From NCBI GenBank assembly GCA_004211885.1, contig SHBV01000005.1:11391-75390 (forward strand): a DNA stretch of 64,000 nucleotides, read 5' to 3'. Origin of the DNA: Verrucomicrobiaceae bacterium (lineage in GTDB: Bacteria; Verrucomicrobiota; Verrucomicrobiia; Verrucomicrobiales; DEV007). Of the stretch, positions 1 to 64,000 are shown one piece after another (positions within the stretch are counted from its first letter, which is position 1; each line of letters starts with the position of its first letter). The position numbers were made by a program, and so were the translations under genes. A model generated the notes under the pieces. The model was given only the letters and a program-made list of their open reading frames with translations. It made no database searches and was not told where the DNA came from.

Positions 1-275
1 TTGATGATTGCTTCTGTCGTTTGTTTCAGAGGTTGTTTCCCTGCTGCTCCACCTATCCAGATATTGAACGTCATGACTCTGAGAGTGATTTGTTCGGCGA
101 TCAATGGACAAGGAATCCATAAAAGGAAAACAATAGTCGCTATGGATAATGGTAATTTAGACACTCGGACTGAAATTTTAGGATTATTTCTATGACTTGG
201 TATTTGCGTTAATACCCACTAATCACTATTATAAGTCCTTTGCAAACAATCGGTTCCGGTTAACGGGCAAAAAGT

Positions 276-3200
276 ATGAGGAAACCTCAAAAATATATCT
301 CAGCTTTTGTTCTACTGTGCGCTGCTTGCTTCTGCAATTCGTGTGGGTCAAAGGATAGTCTAGACATCTCTTCCCAGTCGAGTCAGCAGGTGAGCCTTCA
401 GCCAGGAGAGCTGAAAGAACTGTATTTGCACGAAGAAGCGTCCAAGAATCTTAGTAAAAGTTCTGCACTCTTTGAACCAATAGCCGCTGAAGATTCTGGC
501 ATTGATTTTGTTAACTTGGTCGATAATCAGCACCCACTGAGTCGTCTCTATATTCTTGGTTACGCGTGTGGGGGAATTTCTATTGGAGACATTGATGGAG
601 ATGGTTGGGATGATATCTATTGTACCGGGGGCCCAAGAGAAAGTGTCCTATATAAGCAGGTAGGTAAGCTTAAGTTTGAGGATATCACATCGGAGTCAGG
701 CGTATCTGCTAAAGGACATTGGAGCGTCTCTTCGCAATTTGTTGATGTTGATAATGATGGTGACCTAGATATTTATGTTTGTAATTATGACACGCCTAAC
801 CTGCTTTATATTAATGATGGTAAAGGGGCTTTCACGGAGTCCGCCAAGGATTCCGGAACAGATGTGAAGGACGCGAGCCTCTCTGCCCACTTTGCAGATT
901 ATGACAATGACGGTGACCTGGACTATTATCTCATAACGAACCGGCTCATTCGTGCCGGGGGCTTACCGACGGCGAAGGAGGCAACTTACGTCACTGCTGA
1001 TGAGAAACCGGTACTCCGCCCTGAGTTCAGACGATATTATGAAATGTATGAGAAGGCAGGTGGTAAGTATACGATCAGAACCATTGGTCGGCCTGACCGA
1101 CTGTTCGAGAATGACGGTAGCGGTAAGTTCCGTGATGTGACGAAAGAAGCGGGGATCGAAGATCAGGCTTACGGATTATCAGCAACGTGGTTTGATTACG
1201 ATAGTGATGGATTAATAGACATCTATGTCGCTAATGATTTCCAGGACCCTGATTACTTTTATCGTAATAATGGGGATGGTTCATTTACCAATGTTATAAA
1301 ATCTGCAGTTCCTCATACGACATGGTTTTCAATGGGAAGTGATATTGCTGACCTTAATAATGATGGGCTATTAGATCTCTTTGTTTTGGACATGGCTGCG
1401 ACTTCGCATTACAAAGCAAAAATTGCCATGGGAGACATGAGTGCATTCAAGAACTTCATGGACACTTCTTCGCCGCGTCAGATGATGCGTAATGCGCTTT
1501 TTATTCATAGTGGAACCTCGCGTTTCCTTGAAAGTGCATGGCTCAGTGGCCTTGCCGCTTCTGGTTGGTCATGGGCTGCGAAATTATCTGATTTCGATAA
1601 TGATGGATTCACTGATGTTTTTGTGTCCAACGGCATGAGTGCAAATATCCGTAACCCGGATAAATATTTTCCAGTTGTAGTGAATGGTAAGGAGCAATTC
1701 ATTCCATATTCCCAGTCCATGCTTCAGGGAACAGAAGAATGGCAACTATGGAAAAAAACAGGGCTACAGAAAGATACGAACCAGGCCTTTCAAAATCTGG
1801 GTCATTTAAAGTTCAAGGACGTTTCCAAGGACTGGGGCCTTGACCATTTAGGAGCAAGTTACGCGGCGTCGACTGGTGACCTTGACCGGGACGGAGACCT
1901 TGACCTTGTCGTTGCGAGTCTCGATGAGCCTGTCCAGATCTTCCGCAATGATAGTACCAAGAACAGGGTCACCATTTCTCTCCGTGGTAACGAATCTAAC
2001 CGGTATGGAATAGGCGCTGTTTTACGAGCAGATTCTGGTAAAGGTAAACAGACGAAGATCATGAATCCGATGACAGGATACGCTTCATGTAATGGTCCTG
2101 TTATGCATTTTGGAATTGGGGATGATGACAGAATCGATCGTCTTGAAGTAGAATGGCCAGGCGGAATTAAACAGTCTTTTAAGGACCTTGCGGCTGGGTC
2201 TCATTATGTTGTCTCGCAGAGCAAGGAAACTTCCTTACCAGAAGAAGAGAAAAAGAAAACCGGCGCCGAGCCAATGTTTGCTTCTGTTAAATCGATTAAG
2301 TCAGCATCTCATAAGGAGACATTCTTTAATGATTTTGCCCTTCAGCCATTACTGCCCAATAAGCTCTCTCATTTAGGCCCTGGAATAGCTGTCGGAGATA
2401 CGGACGGAGATGGTAATGATGAAATTGTATTGGGATCTGCGCGTTCTGGATCTCTTGCCATCCATCATGAGCCTGAACGTTCGATGTCCTGGAAAGAAAT
2501 TTCTGCAAGTTCAGCTCACAGTAGTTCCGAGGACATGAGTTCACTATTGTTTGATGCAGACCTTGACGGAGACGCGGACCTCTTCGTAGTCAGTGGAGGC
2601 GTCGAGTCTGAGGCCGAAGAACTGAAAGACAGGTTATATTTAAATGACGGTAAAGGGGCATATGAGCATGCTCCTGAGGGAACATTACCTGATCTCATGG
2701 TCAGTGGATCGGTCGCTTCTGCAGCTGACTTTGACCGTGACGGAGACTTGGACATTTTTGTGGGGGGACGATTACGTCCTGGAAAATATCCTACGAGTCC
2801 AAAGAGTACATTATTACTTAATGAAACTGTTAAGGGGCAGAAGGTACTATTTACTGATGCTACCAAGCAAATTTGTCCGGAAATTGAGAATTGTGGAATG
2901 GTAACGAGTGCACTCTGGTCCGATGCGAATGGGGACGGATGGGTTGATCTTTTGTTGAGCATTGAGTGGGGACCAGTTCGAATATTTATAAATAATGAGG
3001 GTAAATTGAAAGAGACGACTCAGAGCTCAGGACTCCAGGAATATTCAGGCTGGTGGAATGGACTCGCAGGGAGGGACCTTGATGGGGACGGAGACATTGA
3101 TTATGTAGCTACCAATTTTGGACTCAATACTAAGTATCATCCGTCTAAGAAAAAACCTTCCCGGATCTATTATGGTACATTTGGTGAATCACCTATACCA

Positions 3201-4049
3201 AGGATCGTTGAAGCCAAAGTTGCTGAGGACTGCATTTTACCTGTCCGAGGAAAGAGTTGCTCGCAGAATGCCATGCCTTTTGTGAAAGAAAAATTCAACA
3301 CGTATCACAAGTTTGCTTCAGCTACTCTGACAGATATTTATACTCAGACAGCGTTGCAGAAATCGGAGTCATTTGAGGTTAATTATCTTAAGAGTGTTGT
3401 GTTCATCAATGATGGTAAAGCTAATTTCAAGGCTGTGCCTTTGCCCGAACTGAGTCAGATTGCTCCAGGATTTGGTGTCATTGCTACTGAAGTCAATGGT
3501 GACGGAAAAGCTGACATCTACTTGGTACAGAACTTTTACCACCCTCAGAGAGAGACTGGAAGGATGGCCGGTGGGATGAGTGTTTTATTACTTGGGGATG
3601 GTTCGGGTTCCTTCAATGAGGTATGGCCTGACAGGAGTGGCTTAACAGTTCCTGAAGATGCGAGGGGACTCGCTTCTTTCGATTTGAACGATGATGGATG
3701 GGTTGATTTTGCGGTTGGCATTAATGATGGAAAAATGAAATTGTTTGAAAATAAGGTTGGCTCTAATTCTGGACACAAGTCTTTCATGATTCAACTCTCT
3801 GAGGGGCCTGGTAATCCTACTGGCGTTGGATCAAAAGTCAGCGTTGAATTAACAGATGGATCCTCGCAGACCGATGAGGTCAGAGCCGGTGGCAGTTACC
3901 TGTCCCAGTCTTCATCTGGGTTATTTTTTGGTCTAAGCGCTGGCAATAAGGTCAAGAATATTAAGGTCCGTTGGCCTGATGGAGAGAAAACTACTCACCA
4001 GTATCCTTCGGGAAAGCATAAGGTCATTATTACCCGAACCGCTCAGTAG
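276..4049 (+). CDS. Exported FG-GAP/VCBS-repeat protein with two ASPIC/UnbV-like segments (CRTAC1-family architecture), probable lipoprotein
   Basis: The 1257-aa ORF has a signal/lipobox-like N-terminus (LLCAACFCNSCGS). It carries many DxDxDGxxD Ca-binding repeats (DIDGDGWDD, DVDNDGDLD, DYDNDGDLD, DFDRDGDLD, DLDGDGDID). Two UnbV/ASPIC-type motifs are present (NRYGIGAVLR...HFGIG...VEWPGG and GGSYLSQSS...VRWPDG). Confidence 0.85.
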   Translation: MRKPQKYISAFVLLCAACFCNSCGSKDSLDISSQSSQQVSLQPGELKELYLHEEASKNLSKSSALFEPIAAEDSGIDFVNLVDNQHPLSRLYILGYACGGISIGDIDGDGWDDIYCTGGPRESVLYKQVGKLKFEDITSESGVSAKGHWSVSSQFVDVDNDGDLDIYVCNYDTPNLLYINDGKGAFTESAKDSGTDVKDASLSAHFADYDNDGDLDYYLITNRLIRAGGLPTAKEATYVTADEKPVLRPEFRRYYEMYEKAGGKYTIRTIGRPDRLFENDGSGKFRDVTKEAGIEDQAYGLSATWFDYDSDGLIDIYVANDFQDPDYFYRNNGDGSFTNVIKSAVPHTTWFSMGSDIADLNNDGLLDLFVLDMAATSHYKAKIAMGDMSAFKNFMDTSSPRQMMRNALFIHSGTSRFLESAWLSGLAASGWSWAAKLSDFDNDGFTDVFVSNGMSANIRNPDKYFPVVVNGKEQFIPYSQSMLQGTEEWQLWKKTGLQKDTNQAFQNLGHLKFKDVSKDWGLDHLGASYAASTGDLDRDGDLDLVVASLDEPVQIFRNDSTKNRVTISLRGNESNRYGIGAVLRADSGKGKQTKIMNPMTGYASCNGPVMHFGIGDDDRIDRLEVEWPGGIKQSFKDLAAGSHYVVSQSKETSLPEEEKKKTGAEPMFASVKSIKSASHKETFFNDFALQPLLPNKLSHLGPGIAVGDTDGDGNDEIVLGSARSGSLAIHHEPERSMSWKEISASSAHSSSEDMSSLLFDADLDGDADLFVVSGGVESEAEELKDRLYLNDGKGAYEHAPEGTLPDLMVSGSVASAADFDRDGDLDIFVGGRLRPGKYPTSPKSTLLLNETVKGQKVLFTDATKQICPEIENCGMVTSALWSDANGDGWVDLLLSIEWGPVRIFINNEGKLKETTQSSGLQEYSGWWNGLAGRDLDGDGDIDYVATNFGLNTKYHPSKKKPSRIYYGTFGESPIPRIVEAKVAEDCILPVRGKSCSQNAMPFVKEKFNTYHKFASATLTDIYTQTALQKSESFEVNYLKSVVFINDGKANFKAVPLPELSQIAPGFGVIATEVNGDGKADIYLVQNFYHPQRETGRMAGGMSVLLLGDGSGSFNEVWPDRSGLTVPEDARGLASFDLNDDGWVDFAVGINDGKMKLFENKVGSNSGHKSFMIQLSEGPGNPTGVGSKVSVELTDGSSQTDEVRAGGSYLSQSSSGLFFGLSAGNKVKNIKVRWPDGEKTTHQYPSGKHKVIITRTAQ

Positions 4050-7495: not shown

Positions 7496-10018
7496 TTAAT
7501 CAAAGCTGATTTCGGGTCTTTTACGGATCGAAAGCTCTGTCCTGAGAAAGTTTGAGTCCTTGAATCCAAACGGTTTAGCAATAAATGCTTCTGGGATTCT
7601 TTGCGAGGTTGTTTTGTATAGTTCAACGCTGTCATTGTAACCCTGACGCATGAGGGCCACCTCATTCTCAACGAGCCGAAGTTGTTCCATCAAGTTACCG
7701 AGCATTTCATGTCCTTTGAGTTCAGGGTACTTTTCTGCCAAGGCAAATAGTCGTTCTGTTAATTGATTTTCGGTGTGCATAATCGAATCAATTTCCTCCG
7801 TCGAGAATCTTTTTTTCTGGCCTATTGTTGTTCTTAATTCGCTGATTTGTTTGTGAACTTCCTTCTCGTGTTCGAGGTATGATTTTGCTGCGGACTCAAT
7901 ATTAGGAATCAGCTCGGAGCGTTTCTGTAAGGAAACTTCGATATTGGAATGGGCCCTCTTGACTCTGTTCCTAAGGAATACCAGATCATTGAACATGAGA
8001 ATAAAAGTGCTAGCAATGAGGAATGCCGGAGCAGTCAGAGACGATAATATAAAATCGCTCGGTGAATAAGAGCCGGTCCCTGCAAAATAGAGTAGGACCA
8101 GTGTCACTATACCGATGAAACCACAACTGACTCGGAACAGGCCGGCTCGACTTATCTTGAGCATTGTCTCGGCCTCGGTCCTATCTGAAATGAGGAAAGG
8201 AAAACCATCATTATCACCGTCTGCCATTTGCAGGCTCTCGCCCGCGATCGGTTCGATCACAGCCGATCCTAGAAGGTAAATTTCCTGACTCTCAGCGATG
8301 TGCCATTCATAATAGGTTCGGCGCCCTGATTTCTCTCTCTTTTTCCTTTCACATATGAATTCAGCACCGAACGGAACGACTCTCGTGTACCCCTCCTCAT
8401 CCTTGCAGAGAAAAGGAACCATCTCGTTACGGTCCTCGATGACTACTGTTTTCTTATTCTTACCGGAGCCTCGTGTCTCAGTGATTTTGTACCGGTAATA
8501 GAGGCATTCTTTTTTGGTCAGTGGACCAATGATTCTGTGCTCATTACCCTCATAAAGGACGCTAGTCCCCTTAATTTCTGCAGGACCGAAGGCCAGGCCC
8601 TTCGAGAGTGAGGTGGGAACATTTTCAATGTATCGCTTAGTCTTTATTTTTCTGAAGCCGAACAATGTGCCAAATATTCCCCCGGCTAAGGCAAGTGATC
8701 CCCCGATCCATGATAACCATTTAGGCATGGGGCTCTTGATGATTTTCGAATCATTGGGGCGTTGTTCTTCGGGTCCAAATATGGATTCGCTTTCATGTAT
8801 GTTCCAGAACTTTGAGAGGTGCCTTTCAGGGAACCTTTTGAGAATGGCGTTGTTTCTTTCAATGGCTGCAGCGTAATCATTTCTGATTCCAATGATGCGA
8901 GCTTTGGCTTTATCATCTTTGATGGCCTCTGCTAATTGAGGGACAGATTCCCATTCGAAAGTCTTTCCAATTATTTTCAGGATAGCCAATTTTGCATTGG
9001 CTTCGTGGCGTTTGAGCCGTTCATTACCGTCCTTAACGTCAGCAGCCATCATGTTGATTCCCATCACAGTAAGGATCAGGACGTTCAGGGCTGAGAGTAT
9101 AGATAAAAATACTAGGATCCGGTGAATTTTAATCATGAAACATAAGAAGAGGACACCCAAAGAAAAACATACTAAACTCACGAAAGTGAGTAAGACCCCA
9201 ATGCCTCCCTGCTGTGCTCGAGAAGATACGGCGTTACCATCACTGAGGATCGGAGAATAGGACCCCTCCTCGGAAAAATTGAGCTCGTAATTACCGTTAC
9301 GGCTCACGGCCATTGCAAAGGCGAAAATTTCCTCTCCAATATCTATTCTTCTTTCTGTCCACCGATAATCTCCTCTGCGCCGAGAATAGTCTGTTCCTAG
9401 GCTAGGGTCTTTATTTGCCTCTTCGATCAGTGAATCGAGTGAGACGAGCACGTCCCCTGTACTATCTTTGATGCTAAAGAATCGTACGTATTGGGTTCCT
9501 GACTCTACCGTTGACCAGCTCTCGTTCCCTTCCGAGTCCTCTGACCGTTTCTCTTTTTTATAGTAGCAATAGAAACATGTTACATTGGTGTATCTTGCTC
9601 TCACGAAATTTGAGCCTGCTTTGCTTTGGTAGCTCCTTGTGTTTCTTTTTCCGTAGTGTTTTTCCGCTTCGTCATCATGAGGATTTGAAGGGTCAGTCCC
9701 TAGCCAATTTTCAATACTATCTGGTGTGCCTCCACCGTCAGTATCAATCTCGGTAGGTTTAATGATCAGAGGTTCCGGTTTTTCGCTTTTGACTTTGACT
9801 GTATCTTTTTGGCTAAATGCCTTGCCCTGTATTCTGACCTCACCGGGTATCAGTGAAATGACATTGGTCTCCGGTATCCTTTCGAGTTGCCGCATGTCCC
9901 GAACTTTTTGATATCCTTTGTTCTGCGCGTAACAGCCCCCGATCAGGAGAGGAATGATGAGCCAGAGCCAACGGACCATAACTGGACTCTTTTTAGATTC
10001 CCCTGATTTCTTCTTCAT
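7496..10018 (-). CDS. Multi-pass membrane protein: two GIDE-like modules fused to a C-terminal LemA domain
   Basis: This is an 840-aa ORF. The last ~165 aa (nt 7499-7993) match the LemA pattern (FNDLVFLRNRVKRAHSNIEVSLQKRSELIPNIESAAKSY...AEKYPELKG...ENEVALMRQGYNDSV..YK). Two upstream soluble modules show the GIDE-type pattern (GxVxIxG...PLTxxxCxYYxY...VPFxxxDxxG..V.P.GAE). Several hydrophobic helices separate the modules. Confidence 0.75.
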   Translation of the reverse strand: MKKKSGESKKSPVMVRWLWLIIPLLIGGCYAQNKGYQKVRDMRQLERIPETNVISLIPGEVRIQGKAFSQKDTVKVKSEKPEPLIIKPTEIDTDGGGTPDSIENWLGTDPSNPHDDEAEKHYGKRNTRSYQSKAGSNFVRARYTNVTCFYCYYKKEKRSEDSEGNESWSTVESGTQYVRFFSIKDSTGDVLVSLDSLIEEANKDPSLGTDYSRRRGDYRWTERRIDIGEEIFAFAMAVSRNGNYELNFSEEGSYSPILSDGNAVSSRAQQGGIGVLLTFVSLVCFSLGVLFLCFMIKIHRILVFLSILSALNVLILTVMGINMMAADVKDGNERLKRHEANAKLAILKIIGKTFEWESVPQLAEAIKDDKAKARIIGIRNDYAAAIERNNAILKRFPERHLSKFWNIHESESIFGPEEQRPNDSKIIKSPMPKWLSWIGGSLALAGGIFGTLFGFRKIKTKRYIENVPTSLSKGLAFGPAEIKGTSVLYEGNEHRIIGPLTKKECLYYRYKITETRGSGKNKKTVVIEDRNEMVPFLCKDEEGYTRVVPFGAEFICERKKREKSGRRTYYEWHIAESQEIYLLGSAVIEPIAGESLQMADGDNDGFPFLISDRTEAETMLKISRAGLFRVSCGFIGIVTLVLLYFAGTGSYSPSDFILSSLTAPAFLIASTFILMFNDLVFLRNRVKRAHSNIEVSLQKRSELIPNIESAAKSYLEHEKEVHKQISELRTTIGQKKRFSTEEIDSIMHTENQLTERLFALAEKYPELKGHEMLGNLMEQLRLVENEVALMRQGYNDSVELYKTTSQRIPEAFIAKPFGFKDSNFLRTELSIRKRPEISFD

Positions 10019-23051: not shown

Positions 23052-23122
23052 TTCTTGATTAAAGAGTTCTTATTGAACTTGCCATATTCATCTTCCGTTA
23101 ATACTTTAAGGACTCCCCGGTG

Positions 23123-26100
23123 ATGAAATTCACATTCAAGACTAAAACCATAATTGCTGTTACTATTGCTCTTTGCGGATGTGATCGTGCAGACGAACGT
23201 GTAGAAGTCCCTGATGATAAGCGCCAAGAGTTCATTAGGTTTGAAAAGAGTCAGTATGATAATGTCTTTTTTGCTCCTCTCAAGGAGCGCAAAGTTACAG
23301 ATTCGAAAAAACTTTTCACTAGACTCTTACCAAAGACCACGGGGGTTAATTTTCAGAACCGTATTGATATCAAAGAACCACTGAAAAGACTCTACCATTC
23401 TGGATTTGTTTGTGGTGGAGTAGCGCTAGGTGATTTTAACGGGGACACTAGGCTGGATATTTTTCTAGTGAGTGGGCCAGGAAAGAACAAACTCTACATA
23501 CAGCGGGAGGATTTTCGATTTGAGGACATGAGTTCAACTGCAGGAATTGAAGAAGGAGATGACTGGGGAGCTGGAGTCGCTGCTGTAGACATTGAGAGTG
23601 ATGGAGACCTTGATCTTTACATTTGTAATTATGATTCTGCGAACTCGCTTTATATCAATGATGGTAAAGGTCATTTCACTGAGTCGGCTACGCGTTCAGG
23701 GATAGATGTTGTGGATGCATCTCTCGTTCCGACATTTTGTGACTTTGATCAGGACGGAGACCTTGACCTTTATGTATTAACGAACCGTTATTACAGAGAA
23801 GGTGGCCGTCCTGCCAAGCCGCCATTCCAAAAGACAGACAAGGGAGATTTAATTGTGAGTCCTGACTTTCAGAAGTTTTATGGCATCAAGCAAAAGGGTC
23901 CGAAGTCATATGACATGGACGAGATTGGGAGACCGGACCTTTTGTTTCGTAATGATGGTGGAACCTTTGTGAATATAAGTAAGAGTGCTGGAATACAGAA
24001 AGAAGGGCACGGGCTCTCAGCGACTTGGTGGGACTATGATGGGGACGGGTTGATGGACATTTATGTTGCTAATGACTTTGCTGATCCAGACAACCTATTC
24101 CGTAACAATGGAGATGGAACCTTTACCGATATCATAACGAAGGTATTAAATTATACTCCATGGTTCTCTATGGGAGCCGATGCCGGTGATATTAATAATG
24201 ACGGTCTCCTTGATTTTGTTGCATTGGATATGGCAGCGACAACACACTACAAGTCAAAAATGTCAATGGGAGAAATGGGAGCCATGCGGTGGGTAATCGA
24301 AGCGGCAAGGCCCCGCCAAGTGATGCGTAATTGCCTTTATCTTAATCAGGGCAATGGTCTCTTTTCCGAAAATGCCAGTTTGTCGGGATTAGCTAATTCG
24401 GACTGGTCCTGGGCCGCTAAGTTAGCCGACTATGATAATGATGGGCGCGTTGATCTCTTTGTTTCGAACGGGATGGCACGTGACTTTAATAATTCTGACA
24501 TCACGTTCACTTCTCAGGATCAGATCGGAAAGAGTGAGTGGGATCATTATGAAAATGCCCCGACCAAGCCTGAACAAAACCTTGCTTTTCAGAACTTGGG
24601 AGATTTACAATTTGCCAACGTGAGTGAGGACTGGGGCCTTGATCATGTTGGAATGAGTTATGCTTCAGCTCATGGTGACTTTGATAAGGACGGAGACCTT
24701 GATCTATTAGTCGTTAATTTAAATGAGCCGGTTTCTATTTATAGGAACGAGTCGGGTTCCGGTCATGCTGCATTAGTGACGCTGAGGGGGAGCCAATCTA
24801 ACCGAAACGGTATCGGTGCATTCGTTGAAATTGTTGCTGGTGATCTTAAGCATGTGCGACAATTGGTGCCTTTGTCGGGTTATCTTTCCAGCAATGAAAG
24901 CTCGCTTCATTTTGGGCTCGGTGAGGCTGAAGGCATTCAGAGTTTGAAGGTCCGTTGGCCTAACGGGGGAGTGCAGGAATTTAGTGACTTGCCCGTCAAT
25001 AAACACATTATTATTTCGGAGACCAATGATAATCTGCGGCCCTATTCTCGTGCAGAACAGAAACCTATGTTTGTGAAGCATTCAGGATTGAGTGGAATCA
25101 TTCATAAAGAAAAGATTTACGAAGACTTTATTCATCAGCCCTTATTGCCTCATAAAATGTCCCAGTTAGGTCCTGGCATTGCCTTTGCGGATGTGGACGG
25201 TAACGGGACTGAAGACTTTTTCATTGGCTGCGCACGTGGTCAGTCCGGGGCCATTTTTTTGAGTGATGGTAAGGGAGGATTTAAGGTTGAGGGTAATGGA
25301 CAACCGTTCGCGGACCACGTCGATTCAGAAGACATGGGCGTTCTATTCTTTGATGCAGATTCTGACGGTGATCCTGACTTATATGTGTCATCTGGAAGCT
25401 ATGAATATAAGAAAGGTGATCCGAAGGTAAGAGATAGGCTTTATGTGAATGATGGATCAGGTCAGTTCGCATCTGCTCCAGAAGGCTCTTTGCCGAAATT
25501 CACGGATAATAGCAGTGTAGTTTGCGGAGCGGATTTTGACCGTGACGGTGATTTGGATCTTTTTGTAGGAGGCAGAGTATTGAGTGGAGAATATCCTCTA
25601 GCGGCAACGAGTAGGATTTTAATTAATGAATCTGTTCCTGGGCAGAGCATTCGTTTTGTTGCTAGTTCTAATGATCAGGTATCAGCTCTTGCAAATGCAG
25701 GAATGGTTACCTCAGCACTGTGGACTGAAGTCAATGGTGATGGTTGGGTAGATCTTATGGTCACAACAGAGTGGGGGCCTGTTAGAGTATTTTTGAATGA
25801 TTCCGGAAAACTAGTAGAAGCCACTAAGGAGTCAGGCCTTGCAAATATTCTGGGCTGGTGGAATAGCATCACTGGTGCTGACATTGACAATGATGGTGAC
25901 ATTGATTATGCAATTGGTAATTCGGGCCAGAACACAAAGTATTATGCATCTGTAAAAAAACCGATTCGTATTTACTATGGAGATTATGAAGGGAACGGCT
26001 CCAAAAGTATTGTTGAGGCTAAGTATGAAAATGGAGTCTTATTACCGATCAGAGGCAAGAGTTGTTCGACATCTGCAATACCTTCGCTGGGAGAAAAGTT

Positions 26101-26836
26101 TAAAACTTTCCATCAATTTGCAAGCTCTTCATTGAGTGACATTTATACACCTGCGAGGCTCAAGGGTTCTGCTGTTTTTGAAGCCAATGAATTGTCATCT
26201 GGAATACTTGTAAATAATGGAAAAGGTTCATTCACTTTTAAGGCGTTGCCAAGTGCGGCTCAGAACGCTCCCATTTTTGGTCTTAACTTTTGTGATGTTA
26301 ATGGTGACGGAAATTTAGATCTTTATGCGGCACAAAATTTTTCGGTGACACAATTTGAAACGCCTCCTTATCGTGGTGGACTGAGTCAATTAATGTTAGG
26401 TGATGGTGAGGGAGGCTTTAAAGCATTGACCGCGTCCGAGAGTGGTCTGATTGTTCCAACTGATGGAAGAGGTTTGGCGAGGACAGATATTAATGGGGAC
26501 GGGTTACCTGATTTTGTAGTTGCTGTGAATGATGGCGAATTACAGGCATTCACTCGTGTAGCTGACGGACCTAGGCCTAAGAAAGTCATTCTTAAAGGGG
26601 CAAAGGGCAATCCAATGGCAGCCGGTTCAAAAATTTTGTTCAAATCTAAAAATGTTAAAGGTAGGATACGCGTTGAGGAAATTTACCAGGGAGGAGGCTA
26701 CTTGTCTCAGTCAGGTAATGCTATTTACATTGATTCGTCCTTTGATTCGTTGATTATCTCTTGGCCTGATGGCAAGAAAACGGAGCATTCGTTGTCTGCA
26801 GAGAAGTATGAATTTACATTCACTCAGCCCGATTGA
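23123..26836 (+). CDS. Exported FG-GAP/VCBS + ASPIC/UnbV protein, paralog of 276..4049; probable lipoprotein
   Basis: The ~1237-aa ORF has a lipobox-like IALCGC. It is collinear with the first gene over its full length, roughly half the residues being identical by eye (LYINDGKGHFTESATRSGIDVVDASL vs LYINDGKGAFTESAKDSGTDVKDASL). UnbV motifs are NRNGIGAFVE and GGGYLSQSG...ISWPDG. Confidence 0.85.
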   Translation: MKFTFKTKTIIAVTIALCGCDRADERVEVPDDKRQEFIRFEKSQYDNVFFAPLKERKVTDSKKLFTRLLPKTTGVNFQNRIDIKEPLKRLYHSGFVCGGVALGDFNGDTRLDIFLVSGPGKNKLYIQREDFRFEDMSSTAGIEEGDDWGAGVAAVDIESDGDLDLYICNYDSANSLYINDGKGHFTESATRSGIDVVDASLVPTFCDFDQDGDLDLYVLTNRYYREGGRPAKPPFQKTDKGDLIVSPDFQKFYGIKQKGPKSYDMDEIGRPDLLFRNDGGTFVNISKSAGIQKEGHGLSATWWDYDGDGLMDIYVANDFADPDNLFRNNGDGTFTDIITKVLNYTPWFSMGADAGDINNDGLLDFVALDMAATTHYKSKMSMGEMGAMRWVIEAARPRQVMRNCLYLNQGNGLFSENASLSGLANSDWSWAAKLADYDNDGRVDLFVSNGMARDFNNSDITFTSQDQIGKSEWDHYENAPTKPEQNLAFQNLGDLQFANVSEDWGLDHVGMSYASAHGDFDKDGDLDLLVVNLNEPVSIYRNESGSGHAALVTLRGSQSNRNGIGAFVEIVAGDLKHVRQLVPLSGYLSSNESSLHFGLGEAEGIQSLKVRWPNGGVQEFSDLPVNKHIIISETNDNLRPYSRAEQKPMFVKHSGLSGIIHKEKIYEDFIHQPLLPHKMSQLGPGIAFADVDGNGTEDFFIGCARGQSGAIFLSDGKGGFKVEGNGQPFADHVDSEDMGVLFFDADSDGDPDLYVSSGSYEYKKGDPKVRDRLYVNDGSGQFASAPEGSLPKFTDNSSVVCGADFDRDGDLDLFVGGRVLSGEYPLAATSRILINESVPGQSIRFVASSNDQVSALANAGMVTSALWTEVNGDGWVDLMVTTEWGPVRVFLNDSGKLVEATKESGLANILGWWNSITGADIDNDGDIDYAIGNSGQNTKYYASVKKPIRIYYGDYEGNGSKSIVEAKYENGVLLPIRGKSCSTSAIPSLGEKFKTFHQFASSSLSDIYTPARLKGSAVFEANELSSGILVNNGKGSFTFKALPSAAQNAPIFGLNFCDVNGDGNLDLYAAQNFSVTQFETPPYRGGLSQLMLGDGEGGFKALTASESGLIVPTDGRGLARTDINGDGLPDFVVAVNDGELQAFTRVADGPRPKKVILKGAKGNPMAAGSKILFKSKNVKGRIRVEEIYQGGGYLSQSGNAIYIDSSFDSLIISWPDGKKTEHSLSAEKYEFTFTQPD

Positions 26837-32422: not shown

Positions 32423-32528
32423 AAAAGTGGCTGCCAGAGAACTACGGCACTCTCGAACAAACTACCGTTGCTGCCGTCAGGCCCTGGCGGATTCGTCAGT
32501 CGATAGTCCATAGTCTCTGAACAACCGC
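32423..32528 (-). ncRNA. ffs: Candidate signal recognition particle RNA (4.5S-type ffs)
   Basis: On the minus strand a ~106-nt sequence folds by hand into one long interrupted hairpin of ~40 bp. Its apex reads CAGG-GCC-[UGAC]-GGC-AGCA, compared with the E. coli domain IV CAGG-UCC-[GGAA]-GGA-AGCA. A promoter-like TTGTCG-16 nt-TAGAAT (32560-32533) ends 4 nt upstream of the first paired base, and a U4 run lies at the 3' end. It sits in a convergent, ORF-free gap of higher GC. Confidence 0.55.
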
Positions 32529-61642: not shown

Positions 61643-62698
61643 TCAGCTCACAATGATCTGCATTTCAGGATCTGGCTCTTTTGCGTAACCAACAATCGCA
61701 GAGTCAGTGATTCCCGTTGCTGTAAGTTTTTCTAGCGCTTCTGTGGCTTGCTCTGCAGGCAGCGCAACGAAGAGCCCGCCACTGGTCTGAGGATCAAAGA
61801 GGATTTCTCTCTTACTTTCTATTGCTGAGTTTTCGAATCGAATGTGCGGAATGGTTTTTTTGCGGTTATGCTTATTGACCCCAGTCGTTATTCCCTCTGC
61901 ATACATTTGATAGGCCTCTTCCATGACAGGCACTGAATTCAGATCCAAGTGTAGACTTGATTCTGATCCTTGTGCCATCTCTAGCCCATGACCAGCGAGT
62001 CCGAAACCTGTAATGTCTGTAGCTGCATGGATTTCAAAATTGGAAAATACTTCAGCAGCAGATTTGTTAAGGCTAATGACTGTATTGATGCAGGAATCAA
62101 AGGCCTCATCGGAGACTTTGCCCTTTAACCTAGCATTAAAAATGACACCCGTTCCAATAGGTTTTGTGAGAATCAGTGCGTCTCCAGGGCGTGCACCGAC
62201 GTTGCGCCAGATCTTTTGGGGATGCACAACCCCAGTAACAGATAATCCGAACTTAGGCTCAGAGTCTTCGACTGTGTGACCTCCTGCGAGGACGGCTCCT
62301 GATTCGGTAATTTTATCGAGTGCACCTTCAATAATTTTGTGGAGGTCCTCGGACGGTAATTGTCCGTCTGGGAAATTGACTAAGTTCAAACAAGTGATGG
62401 GGCGCCCTCCCATGGCATAAACGTCACTGATTGAATTCGCTGCAGCGATCTGACCATAAATGAAAGGATCATTGACGGGAGGGGTGATGTAATCTGCAGT
62501 GGTGACGATAGCGATCTCTTCGGTAAGCTTATAGACACCGGCATCATCGCTGGTATCAAAACCAACGAGAAGATTAGGATCTTCATTCTTTGGAAGACTG
62601 TCTAATAATTTTCCTAGCCCGACCGGGTCAATCTTTGCTGCTCAGCCGCAGGTCTTTGAAAGGCTTTGTAGAGTATTATGTTTTCTAAAAAATGGCAT
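61643..62698 (-). CDS. selD: Selenide, water dikinase (selenophosphate synthetase), selenocysteine-containing form
   Basis: The track ORF (61643..62413) lacks the SelD N-terminus. Extending the same frame upstream gives MPFFRKHNTLQSLSKTCG-TGA-AAKIDPVGLGKLLDSLP...TSDDAGVYKL...ANSISDVYAMGGRP. The TGA at 62642-62644 aligns with the catalytic Cys/Sec of the E. coli GAG-C-GCK motif (U-x-x-K is conserved). The total is 351 codons, the normal SelD length. Confidence 0.85.
62613..62632 (-). promoter_or_regulatory. SECIS-like hairpin for the selD UGA
   Basis: The mRNA reads UGA-GCAGCAAAGA-UUGACCC-GGUC-GGGCUAG. The GGUC loop falls at nt 21-24 counted from the U of UGA, compared with nt 22-25 in E. coli fdhF. 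Confidence 0.65.
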
Positions 62699-62874
62699 TT
62701 TCTATATAAATCTAATTACAATTAATAATACCATCACTATAAGGACTTCATAGAAATTTTTAAGATATCACCTCATTCAGCATGGTCTTTGAATTGACTA
62801 ATCACATTAAAATTTTTAAGATTTAATTTGAATTGAAACTAACTTGCGTTTTTTTTCGTAATAGACAGAGGCAA

Positions 62875-63222
62875 ATGGAGTTTAAAAAAATCACATCAAG
62901 AATTTCACTGATTTTGGTAATTGTTTTTTCATATACCATTTCGACATATTCGTATGAAGTTGATTGCCAATCATGTTGTTGCTGTGAGTTTGAACATTCT
63001 GTTAGTTGCGAATGCTTAACTGAAAATGACAATGATGAACAGTTCCCCATATATGCATTAGCCAGCAGCATAAAAAATATTTTAGATTACTCTAATTACT
63101 ATAGTCTTCCCAATCCCACTTTATTTCAGGTGGAACCTCTTTTAATTGGATCAGCTGGCAATAAATATTTTATACCATCCATCAAAAAGTACGCTTCTCG
63201 GAGTGTAGTTCTCTTGATTTAA
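62875..63222 (+). CDS. Small secreted Cys-rich protein (C-x2-CCCC-x8-C-x-C)
   Basis: ATG 62875 lies 4 nt after a GAGG Shine-Dalgarno sequence. The signal peptide is MEFKKITSRISLILVIVFSYTISTYS. The mature N-terminus is YEVDCQSCCCCEFEHSVSCECL, followed by a Tyr/Asn-rich tail. I recognised no family. Confidence 0.55.
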   Translation: MEFKKITSRISLILVIVFSYTISTYSYEVDCQSCCCCEFEHSVSCECLTENDNDEQFPIYALASSIKNILDYSNYYSLPNPTLFQVEPLLIGSAGNKYFIPSIKKYASRSVVLLI

Positions 63223-63336
63223 ATTAATTAGGTTTCTGATCTGGGCGACATCATTGCCCAAAATTTAAAAACTCTTCGTTTTTTATTACATTAATCTTGT
63301 GCCTAGGAACAGACAGGCACGCCTAAATTTATTATT

Positions 63337-64000
63337 ATGAACCACTTCAAATTATCTATTCTTATTTTTATTGTTTTCGAATTTTATACCTATCAATTCC
63401 TAAGTGCGGGATGACCTGCCTGAACTAATCCAGCAATTCCCCGGTCGGGGAATTCAGAAATTACCGCTATGGACCAGTCCATATTCTCATGGAAAGTGGG
63501 TACAGATTTTTCTATTAGTAATGGTATTTTTGGCAGTCACTTATCAAATAATGGCTTAACGAGTTCATTTGAAAATGTCGAAGTTCCAACTCATCGACAT
63601 GATGTCGAAATGGATTTAAGAAGAGCAAGCCTTTCAATTATGAAATCAATTAATGAGGAGTGGGATGCTGCTTTGATGATTCCCTATTTTTGGAAATCTC
63701 AGAAAGCGTCGGTATCTTTTCTTGAGCCTGCAGATCCTTTACAATTAGAGTATGCAGAAAGGAGCGGGTACATTCATCATCGTACAGAAAATTACAATGG
63801 GTTTGGAGATATGGAATTGATGGTAGGCTTCAAGAAACGAGACTTTTTCAAAGATGGATCGGTTTTGAGGTTGGGTATGGGATTGGCTCTACCTTCTGGA
63901 AGGACTGAAAGTGATCCGTGGATATTAGGAGATTACGGAAGAAAGCATCTACATATTCAGTTTGGCAATGGAACTGTAGATCCATTATTAAATCTTTATT
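63337..64000 (+). CDS. Partial CDS: candidate exported selenoprotein with U-P-A-U motif (two in-frame TGA), His-rich beta-type body; runs off window
   Basis: ATG 63337 opens a frame encoding MNHFKLSILIFIVFEFYTYQFLSAG, which looks like a signal peptide. Then come TGA (63412-14), CCT, GCC and TGA (63421-23). The same frame then stays open for ~192 more codons to nt 64000. A SECIS-like hairpin follows the second TGA. Confidence 0.55.
63435..63454 (+). promoter_or_regulatory. SECIS-like hairpin (perfect 8-bp stem, GGUC loop)
   Basis: The hairpin AATTCCCC-GGTC-GGGGAATT starts 11 nt after the second TGA. The loop falls at nt 23-26 from that UGA. No T-run follows, so it is not a terminator. It shares the 10-mer CCCGGTCGGG with the selD element. 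Confidence 0.6.

Follow-up and report, generated by a model that had tools for sequence, protein, structure and literature searches.

A ten-base hairpin apex shared by three unrelated genes probably directs selenocysteine insertion in a marine Verrucomicrobiales bacterium

In a 64,000-nucleotide stretch of a Verrucomicrobiaceae genome (hereafter the window) the decamer CCCGGTCGGG occurs downstream of in-frame TGA codons in two genes: selD, which encodes selenide, water dikinase, and a divergently oriented gene for a predicted outer-membrane beta-barrel protein, hereafter the barrel gene. The best explanation is that the decamer is very probably the apex of a SelB-type bacterial selenocysteine (Sec) insertion sequence (SECIS), in which three C-G pairs would close a GGUC tetraloop, and that it is used by three unrelated genes, the third being a TPR-like gene on another contig. 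The genome is a marine Verrucomicrobiales metagenome-assembled genome (MAG) of 3.33 Mb in 131 contigs, about 80% complete and with a G+C content of 42.8%. Below we describe the evidence that carries this interpretation, the alternatives to it, and the wider set of selenoprotein genes in which the decamer is embedded.

Results

Three of four exact copies of the decamer follow conserved in-frame TGA codons

A sequence-only reading of this DNA had seen the identical CCC/GGG stem and GGUC loop in two hairpins, and had noticed the decamer nowhere else. A string search bore this out: the window holds exact copies at 62618-62627 on the minus strand and at 63440-63449 on the plus strand and no further one, compared to approximately 0.03 copies expected by chance per window (our own estimate from base composition). 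The minus-strand position had been read correctly, while the plus-strand copy had been given as 63439-63450, one base too wide on each side. The same reading had assigned one in-frame TGA to each gene, 17-19 nt before the decamer. This is correct for selD, where the decamer starts 17 nt past the U of the TGA at 62644-62642. The plus-strand gene, however, has two in-frame TGAs (U-P-A-U), and its decamer starts 19 nt past the U of the second but 28 nt past the U of the first.

In the whole genome, searched on both strands, we found 4 exact decamers compared to 1 match for a reversed control pattern, indicating that the string as such is not enriched. For three of the four, an in-frame TGA conserved among related genomes lies 14-25 nt upstream, and the genes that own these copies (selD, the barrel gene and the TPR-like gene on contig C44) are mutually unrelated; the fourth copy, at C1:53433, has no TGA nearby. 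When up to one mismatch was allowed, the genome had 66 matches compared to 113 for the reversed control. Of these, 62 were one-mismatch variants, and none of the 62 marked a convincing interrupted gene; the five best-looking TGA-associated matches were rejected because their translated frames were not protein-like. Thus, a one-mismatch search, which had been put forward as a route to further selenoproteins, yielded no convincing case. The difference in TGA association between exact copies (3/4) and one-mismatch copies (0/62) corresponds to a Fisher p of approximately 9e-5 by our own calculation.

We considered whether the shared bases could be a coincidence or a by-product of coding, in which conserved peptides happen to share ten bases that have no function as RNA. 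A genomic count only little above that of the control is what such an account would expect, and coding constraint can create a GGUC: in the FG-GAP/ASPIC paralogues described below, the hairpin partly encodes the peptide WRQVV, which is conserved also in homologues without Sec. However, the decamer is read in three different frames and contributes to three different peptides (slashes mark its ends within codons): GA/C CCG GTC GGG (D-P-V-G) in selD, C/CC CGG TCG GG/G (P-R-S-G) in the barrel gene and CCC GGT CGG G (P-G-R) in the gene on C44. This independence of frame argues that the decamer is selected as RNA. Furthermore, synonymous positions are frozen inside the decamer and variable beside it, barrel genes of the Cys form have a different peptide in place of PRSG and lack the hairpin, and the TGA association is confined to exact copies. 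Taken with these observations, coincidence is hardly credible. The sequence-only reading had likewise held chance hard to invoke, and that conclusion stands, but the weight it placed on string identity was overstated: given the GGUC, an identical 3-bp closing stem in a given pair of genes has a modest improbability of approximately 1 in 8 to 1 in 64, with approximately 1 in 8 for a stem made of G/C pairs. The weight of the argument rests instead on position, conservation and reading-frame independence.

The selD copy is conserved as RNA within a predicted Sec-containing SelD

Apart from such sites, TGA serves as a normal stop here, and selD itself ends with an ordinary TGA (61643-61645). The conserved in-frame TGAs of the genes studied here are never swapped for another stop. 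Translated through its internal TGA, the selD product scored 368 bits against TIGR00476 (cut-off 125), and in a phmmer alignment with E. coli SelD (3U0O) U19 aligned with Cys17 and K22 with Lys20. The segment U19-A-A-K22 fits the UxxK motif of Sec-containing SelD (TIGR00476) and likewise the GCAAK loop seen in SelD structures from A. aeolicus; a 2026 catalogue of prokaryotic selenoproteins enters Sec-containing SelD as 'UxxK' (PMC13188914). We found no essential difference between the window's protein and Sec-type SelD. Gene callers would truncate it at Met 62413.

The internal TGA was kept in 7 of 7 selD genes from the same genus. These genes were reached through the neighbouring barrel gene and were thus not picked for the motif. 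In all seven, the codons GAC CCG GTC GGG that hold the decamer are invariant, while the four codons before it and the one after it vary synonymously (GCA/GCC/GCT, AAG/AAA, CTA/CTT/TTA/CTC). In the hairpin, a C-to-U change in two genomes converts an A.C mismatch to an A-U pair.

The barrel gene carries two conserved TGA codons

The full barrel gene comprises 348 codons (contig C77:74727-75770) and ends in ...LSLRRSF. Its predicted product consists of a signal peptide followed by G-U-P-A-U and a 12-stranded outer-membrane beta-barrel. A six-frame search of 40 related genomes identified 9 homologues with 43-89% identity, each of which contains exactly two TGAs in frame, always within G-U-P-A-U-[TA]-N-P-A-I-P-R-S-G. 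Thirty PVC-group loci likewise carry both TGAs. The first of the two positions (U26) is a TGA in 30 of 30 members from the PVC group that we examined and Cys in homologues from Bacteroidota and Poribacteria. The family numbers 388 loci in the GTDB species set. Among the best 80 of these, the second position (U29) is Sec in 78 and Cys in 2, and the motif is UxxU in 40, CxxU in 38, CxxC in 2 and UxxC in none. The presence of the first three types and the absence of the last fit a model in which the SECIS-proximal codon is the primary site and the distal codon was converted later. Poribacteria hold both C-P-A-U and U-G-A-U paralogues.

An alternative is that both plus-strand TGAs are true stops. 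A short open reading frame (ORF) would then end at 63412, translation of the barrel protein would begin at Met 63469, and the hairpin would act as a terminator, an attenuator or another regulatory stem. An in-frame ATG is indeed present at 63469, and the public gene calls of homologues from Verrucomicrobiales and Kiritimatiellia all start downstream of the TGAs, giving N-terminally truncated, 'hypothetical' proteins of 256-305 aa. However, a barrel that began at Met45 would lack a signal peptide and be unable to reach the outer membrane. All homologues retain, in frame, the peptide [TA]NPAIPRSG[ND]SE between the TGAs and Met45, and several of them have Leu in place of the Met. Homologues of the Cys form are contiguous: in Bacteroidota (31-34% identity) they are called at full length, with a signal peptide, then Q[GA]-C-P-A-C-SNPAL, and then the barrel. 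Finally, no U-run follows the hairpin, and the same decamer lies inside selD, whose catalytic N-terminus is indispensable. We consider it very improbable that the TGAs are stops.

Pairing and covariation support the barrel hairpin

The barrel copy of the decamer forms the top of a predicted 8-bp hairpin, AAUUCCCC-GGUC-GGGGAAUU, which encodes I-P-R-S-G-N. We counted pairing and covariation over 23 distinct PVC-group sequences. Within the 8-bp stem 90.8% of cells were paired, compared to 35-66% when the partner strand was slid. Pair 27-40 was C-G in 14 sequences, U-A in 8 and U-G in 1, and pair 30-37 changed from C-G to U-G in 3. The covariation score was 0.196 compared to 0.131 for shuffles, none of 500 shuffles reached it, and the slid controls were lower. 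Because the top pairs are invariant, this signal is modest. Verrucomicrobiales, Kiritimatiellia and one Omnitrophota MAG all retain the hairpin, as CC[CT]C-GGUC-GGGG at +23, across proteins with 42-45% identity. Members of the family outside the PVC group (in Poribacteria, Planctomycetota, Acidobacteriota and Gemmatimonadota) have other hairpins and no GGUC hairpin at +23. In these loci (L075-L133) a conserved hairpin lies about 40 nt past the second UGA, unusually distant for a bacterial SECIS; examples are GAAGUCA-GUU-UGACUUC and GGAGGCC-GGUU-CGGCCUC.

The proposed element resembles that of E. coli fdhF, in which an in-frame UGA is followed by a hairpin within the coding region that has a GGUC apical loop. 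The 46 nt past the fdhF Sec codon (TGACACGGCCCATCGGTTGCA-GGTC-TGCACC...), which match the annotated fdhF in 5419 of 5426 E. coli genomes, place the GGTC at 22-25 from the U, compared to 21-24 in selD and 23-26 for the second barrel UGA. In the minimal fdhF element 11 nt separate the codon from the base of the SelB-binding helix, as they do at the second barrel UGA, and the bSECISearch consensus has a conserved G(G)U apical loop approximately 16-37 nt from the UGA. There are also differences. The closing stem is C-C-C/G-G-G here and G-C-A/U-G-C in fdhF, no bulged U is evident here, two of the genes described here have a spacing that is 9-10 nt longer (+31/+32), and in one gene a single hairpin follows two UGAs.

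A TPR-like gene uses the long spacing

The third decamer lies in a gene on contig C44 that encodes a TPR-like, N-terminally anchored protein of 234 aa with no Pfam match. The gene has 200 open codons before its TGA and 38 after it (...GLPLPNQ-U-QGCGSG...DGIGS), and the motif U-Q-G-C sits in a Cys-rich tail. The single TGA is kept in the orthologues of 11 relatives; one further homologue (L035) has two TGAs, and five more distant homologues have Cys at the TGA position (LPKQ-C-QGC). Databases hold 964 homologues, in Verrucomicrobiota and Planctomycetota. Among the best 120 of these, 60 end exactly at the TGA (LPLP[NS][QE]) and 55 are full length with C-x-x-C.

Because this sole UGA has its GGUC at +31 and is kept in relatives, the long spacing appears to work in this organism. 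This bears on the barrel gene, where GGUC is at +23 from one UGA and +32 from the other. Besides the known hairpin, no structure conserved within 60 nt was found that could serve the first barrel UGA, and third codon positions from the barrel UGAs to the hairpin vary freely. Given the absence of another conserved structure and the spacing precedent, it is most likely that one hairpin serves both UGAs. A single SECIS for both UGAs has been raised tentatively for the UXXU [NiFeSe] hydrogenases, in a study that left UXXU decoding open and that also raised tRNA-ReC, which inserts Cys at UGA, as a complication (PMC13582414).

In line with that complication, we weighed a third alternative, in which SelB is recruited but one or both barrel UGAs are read as Cys by a tRNA of the tRNA-ReC (SelC*) type, or the first UGA is read by near-cognate suppression, so that the product is CxxU or CxxC. 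In favor of this possibility, genomes that encode UXXU hydrogenases more often carry tRNA-ReC-like genes (PMC13582414), the +32 spacing of the first UGA is non-canonical, CxxU is common in the family, and the genome is incomplete. However, a search for a second, tRNA-ReC-like tRNA in this approximately 80%-complete genome found only one tRNA-Sec-like gene and one ordinary 72-nt tRNA-Cys(GCA). The only UGA of the TPR-like gene is at +31 and conserved. Furthermore, the first barrel TGA persists in all 30 PVC members even though a single base change, to TGC or TGT, would give Cys. This alternative reading of the UGAs is very improbable.

The genome encodes the Sec machinery

selA, selB, selC and selD are all present in the genome. 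SelA scored 471 bits, and SelB (contig C52) matched TIGR00475 over its full length, including the C-terminal part, with 320 bits. The one tRNA-Sec(UCA), at 61 bits, adjoins selA (contig C46:33179-36082); selB and selD (contig C77) are on contigs apart from this pair. The proposal that selD and the plus-strand gene share one SelB-dependent mechanism is thus supported by the conserved TGAs, the Cys homologues, the fdhF-like GGUC offset and the four sel genes.

Twelve of at least 13 predicted selenoprotein genes have a GGUC loop in common

The sequence-only reading had anticipated that a genome-wide search for the decamer could reveal the full selenoproteome. Such a search recovered the TPR-like gene, but no more. 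We then scanned for UGAs with a GGUC after them and coding-like sequence to either side, and checked the candidates by homology. This identified further selenoprotein genes that lack the decamer and brought the total to at least 13 genes with 14 Sec codons; because only 3 of these carry the decamer, searching for it does not reveal the selenoproteome. The list of 13 is a lower bound, since such scans miss stems shorter than 4 bp (selD's own among them) and UGAs near gene ends. In 12 of the 13 genes the apex is GGUC, placed +21 to +32 from a UGA. A GGUC loop in this interval is the common feature, and the decamer is no general SECIS signature of the lineage.

One of the additional genes, on contig C94, encodes an FdhA-like molybdopterin oxidoreductase with a TGA at 9036 (+) in the context NCSRS-U-HAPTVAGL and a hairpin GCC-GGUC-UGGC with GGUC at +22. 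The other nine are FG-GAP/VCBS and ASPIC/UnbV paralogues of approximately 800-1300 aa, each with one TGA at the same column (D[LD]L-U-SF[FY]WRQVV); some are fused to a TlpA-like redoxin and TPR. Their hairpins follow the pattern GGCGNCA-GGUC-GUGNCGC with GGUC at +21 (AGUU in one), and the stem covaries through Arg and Ser/Ala/Pro codons. Relatives of family f1 and genome G037 contain up to 32 matches each, and nearly all that span the Sec column carry TGA. In a set of 120 full-length homologues, Ser, Ala or Asn mostly occupies the Sec position and Cys occurs there in only 2, a pattern that is unusual for a Sec site. Two paralogues of this type in the window, at 264-4049 (+) and 23102-26836 (+), have no in-frame TGA and lack the DL-x-SFxWR motif.

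FG-GAP/ASPIC candidates stand in S9 Table of Kim et al. 2016 (PMC4807772). Table 1 of the 2026 catalogue (119 prokaryotic selenoprotein families; PMC13188914) includes SelD, FdhA and several UxxU families, and contains nothing like the barrel, TPR-like or FG-GAP/ASPIC families. In NCBIfam release 20 none of these three families matched a selenoprotein model, and the barrel and TPR-like proteins had no match above noise to any NCBIfam model. Literature searches on GGUC with SelB, UnbV with selenocysteine, and Poribacteria selenoproteins returned nothing relevant.

Several scan candidates were rejected: C35:52476 is the cdsA stop with dxr following in frame, C61:15452 spans two adjacent genes, C49:1816 falls at the end of a gene and C44:57027 in the 5' region of one, and candidates on C1, C50, C79, C83 and C102 are in wrong frames.

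The barrel protein may be an outer-membrane channel

An AlphaFold2 model of the barrel protein, built from a 65-sequence alignment, showed a confident barrel, with a pLDDT of 84.8 and a pTM of 0.80. The N-terminal tail, residues 15-46 with UPAU among them, is disordered in the model. Across the 65 sequences five His residues are invariant (H88, H147, H148, H204 and H206). The closest folds in the PDB were the 12-stranded FapF (5O67) and the COG4313/PF13557 channel Pput2725 (4RL8), which resemble the predicted barrel in size and fold (Foldseek E 7e-13 to 3e-12, TMq 0.56-0.57, TMt 0.68-0.72). Sequence identity to them is 10-13%, and the barrel protein adds an N-terminal UxxU/CxxC tail and the invariant His residues, neither of which is known for these proteins. 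The barrel protein had no Pfam match at E <= 0.1, PF13557 included, and precomputed PF13557 matches exist on some of its homologues only. The modelled resemblance to COG4313 channels thus suggests that the protein may work like them and does not argue for membership. We infer that the product may be a channel in the outer membrane whose flexible tail bears a Sec pair that binds soft metals or is redox-active.

Like the catalogued UxxU selenoproteins (Prx-like, NF041115 metal-binding and FmdB-like proteins, and the UXXU [NiFeSe] hydrogenases), the barrel gene has two Sec codons three codons apart with one predicted SECIS after them, and transitions between CxxU and UxxU occur within its family as they do in those. 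It differs from them in that its product is predicted to be an outer-membrane protein with the motif at the mature N-terminus.

All 7 same-genus genomes with the barrel gene preserve the order of selD (divergent), a small Cys-rich ORF and the barrel gene (Table 1). The small ORF occupies the same place in all seven, with 30-48% identity by tblastn, and has no Pfam or NCBIfam family match. In Poribacteria the barrel gene is preceded by another small Cys-rich protein at 36 loci and followed by a YHS-domain protein at 26 loci and by OEP/TolC-like proteins at 25. One barrel paralogue, in genome G037, has a cupin and a His-rich secreted protein as neighbours.

Table 1. Positions of the genes, Sec codons and predicted hairpins, in window coordinates unless a contig is named
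Feature	Position	Strand	Details
selD (selenide, water dikinase)	61643-62698	-	351 codons including Sec19; ATG at 62698; TGA translated as U
selD Sec codon (UGA)	62642-62644	-	Context KTCG-U-AAKIDP; single internal TGA
selD predicted SECIS, upper hairpin	62613-62632	-	AUUGA-CCC-GGUC-GGG-CUAGG; decamer 62618-62627; GGUC +21 to +24 from U
Divergent intergenic region	62699-62874		AT-rich; between selD and the small-ORF/barrel gene pair; arrangement kept in 7 same-genus genomes
Small exported Cys-rich protein	62875-63222	+	CQSCCCCEFEHSVSCEC; upstream of the barrel gene, same strand
Barrel gene, 5' part	63337-64000	+	ATG at 63337; runs beyond the window end
First barrel Sec codon (U26)	63412-63414	+	GGUC +32 to +35
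Second barrel Sec codon (U29)	63421-63423	+	GGUC +23 to +26; hairpin base 11 nt after codon
Barrel predicted SECIS hairpin	63435-63454	+	8 bp; decamer 63440-63449
TPR-like, N-terminally anchored protein	Contig C44:95700-96401 (locus L024 1501-2202)	-	234 aa; decamer; GGUC +31 to +34
FG-GAP/ASPIC paralogues	Contigs C1, C25, C41, C45, C52, C54, C66, C67, C124 (e.g. C66:24183-28001)	+ (C66 example)	
Small signal recognition particle RNA (RF00169)	32429-32522	-	44.8 bits; gathering score 40

Discussion

Our analysis suggests a mechanism in which the C-terminal domain of SelB, carrying Sec-tRNA(Sec), would bind the decamer hairpin in the mRNA; once the upstream UGA entered the ribosomal A site, SelB, tethered in this way, would supply selenocysteine in place of release. 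In selD, the decamer hairpin would thereby insert Sec19, the catalytic-loop residue. In the barrel gene, it would insert Sec26 and Sec29 directly after the signal peptide, with the second UGA at an fdhF-like spacing and the first 9 nt further upstream. Sec decoding, SelB binding and the service of two codons by one hairpin are in each case inferred from the nucleotide sequence. The elements described here have the features of bacterial SECIS: a conserved in-frame UGA, a GGUC hairpin (at +21, +23/+32 and +31), Cys homologues, covariation and a full set of sel genes.

Several points weigh against this interpretation. Sec insertion in E. coli tolerates little change in spacing, which speaks against a single hairpin for two UGAs, and the incompleteness of the genome leaves room for a second Sec-like tRNA. 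In selD, no more than three contiguous pairs make up the stem. Relative to shuffles, the two hairpins had RNAfold z-scores of -1.25 and +0.49, and folding alone does not single them out; these unremarkable values indicate that folding energy is no usable discriminator for such short stems. Finally, Rfam gave no SECIS family at the gathering score, nor at E <= 10 over 62500-63600, where there were chance matches only, although Rfam 15 may lack a model of the bacterial fdhF type.

A broader reading would join these findings. SelB of this lineage may act at two discrete spacings, with GGUC at approximately 21-23 and approximately 31-32 nt, so that one hairpin could program two Sec residues 9 nt apart; CCC-GGUC-GGG may be a preferred SelB site that was gained independently by three unrelated genes; and the UxxU barrel and TPR-like U-x-x-C proteins may be widespread families that are absent from the 2026 catalogue and NCBIfam and truncated everywhere by gene callers. 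We regard this combined reading as evenly poised between right and wrong.

The decamer is a new instance of a known mechanism, a textbook bacterial SECIS, and since that mechanism is already known the decamer itself teaches nothing new on recoding. Its value lies elsewhere. With the same ten bases in three reading frames, it is a clean natural example of selection at the level of RNA. A simple rule tuned to this lineage (UGA, then GGUC at +21 to +32, flanked by coding sequence) is enough to bring out at least 13 selenoprotein genes from one marine Verrucomicrobial genome, and the decamer search adds a TPR-like U-x-x-C family that is absent from the 2026 catalogue (PMC13188914). In the database entries that we checked, public annotation truncates the barrel and TPR-like genes. 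Finally, the spacing of the first barrel UGA is used alone by another gene of the same genome, and this provides an internal calibration for the question of how UxxU motifs are decoded (PMC13582414).

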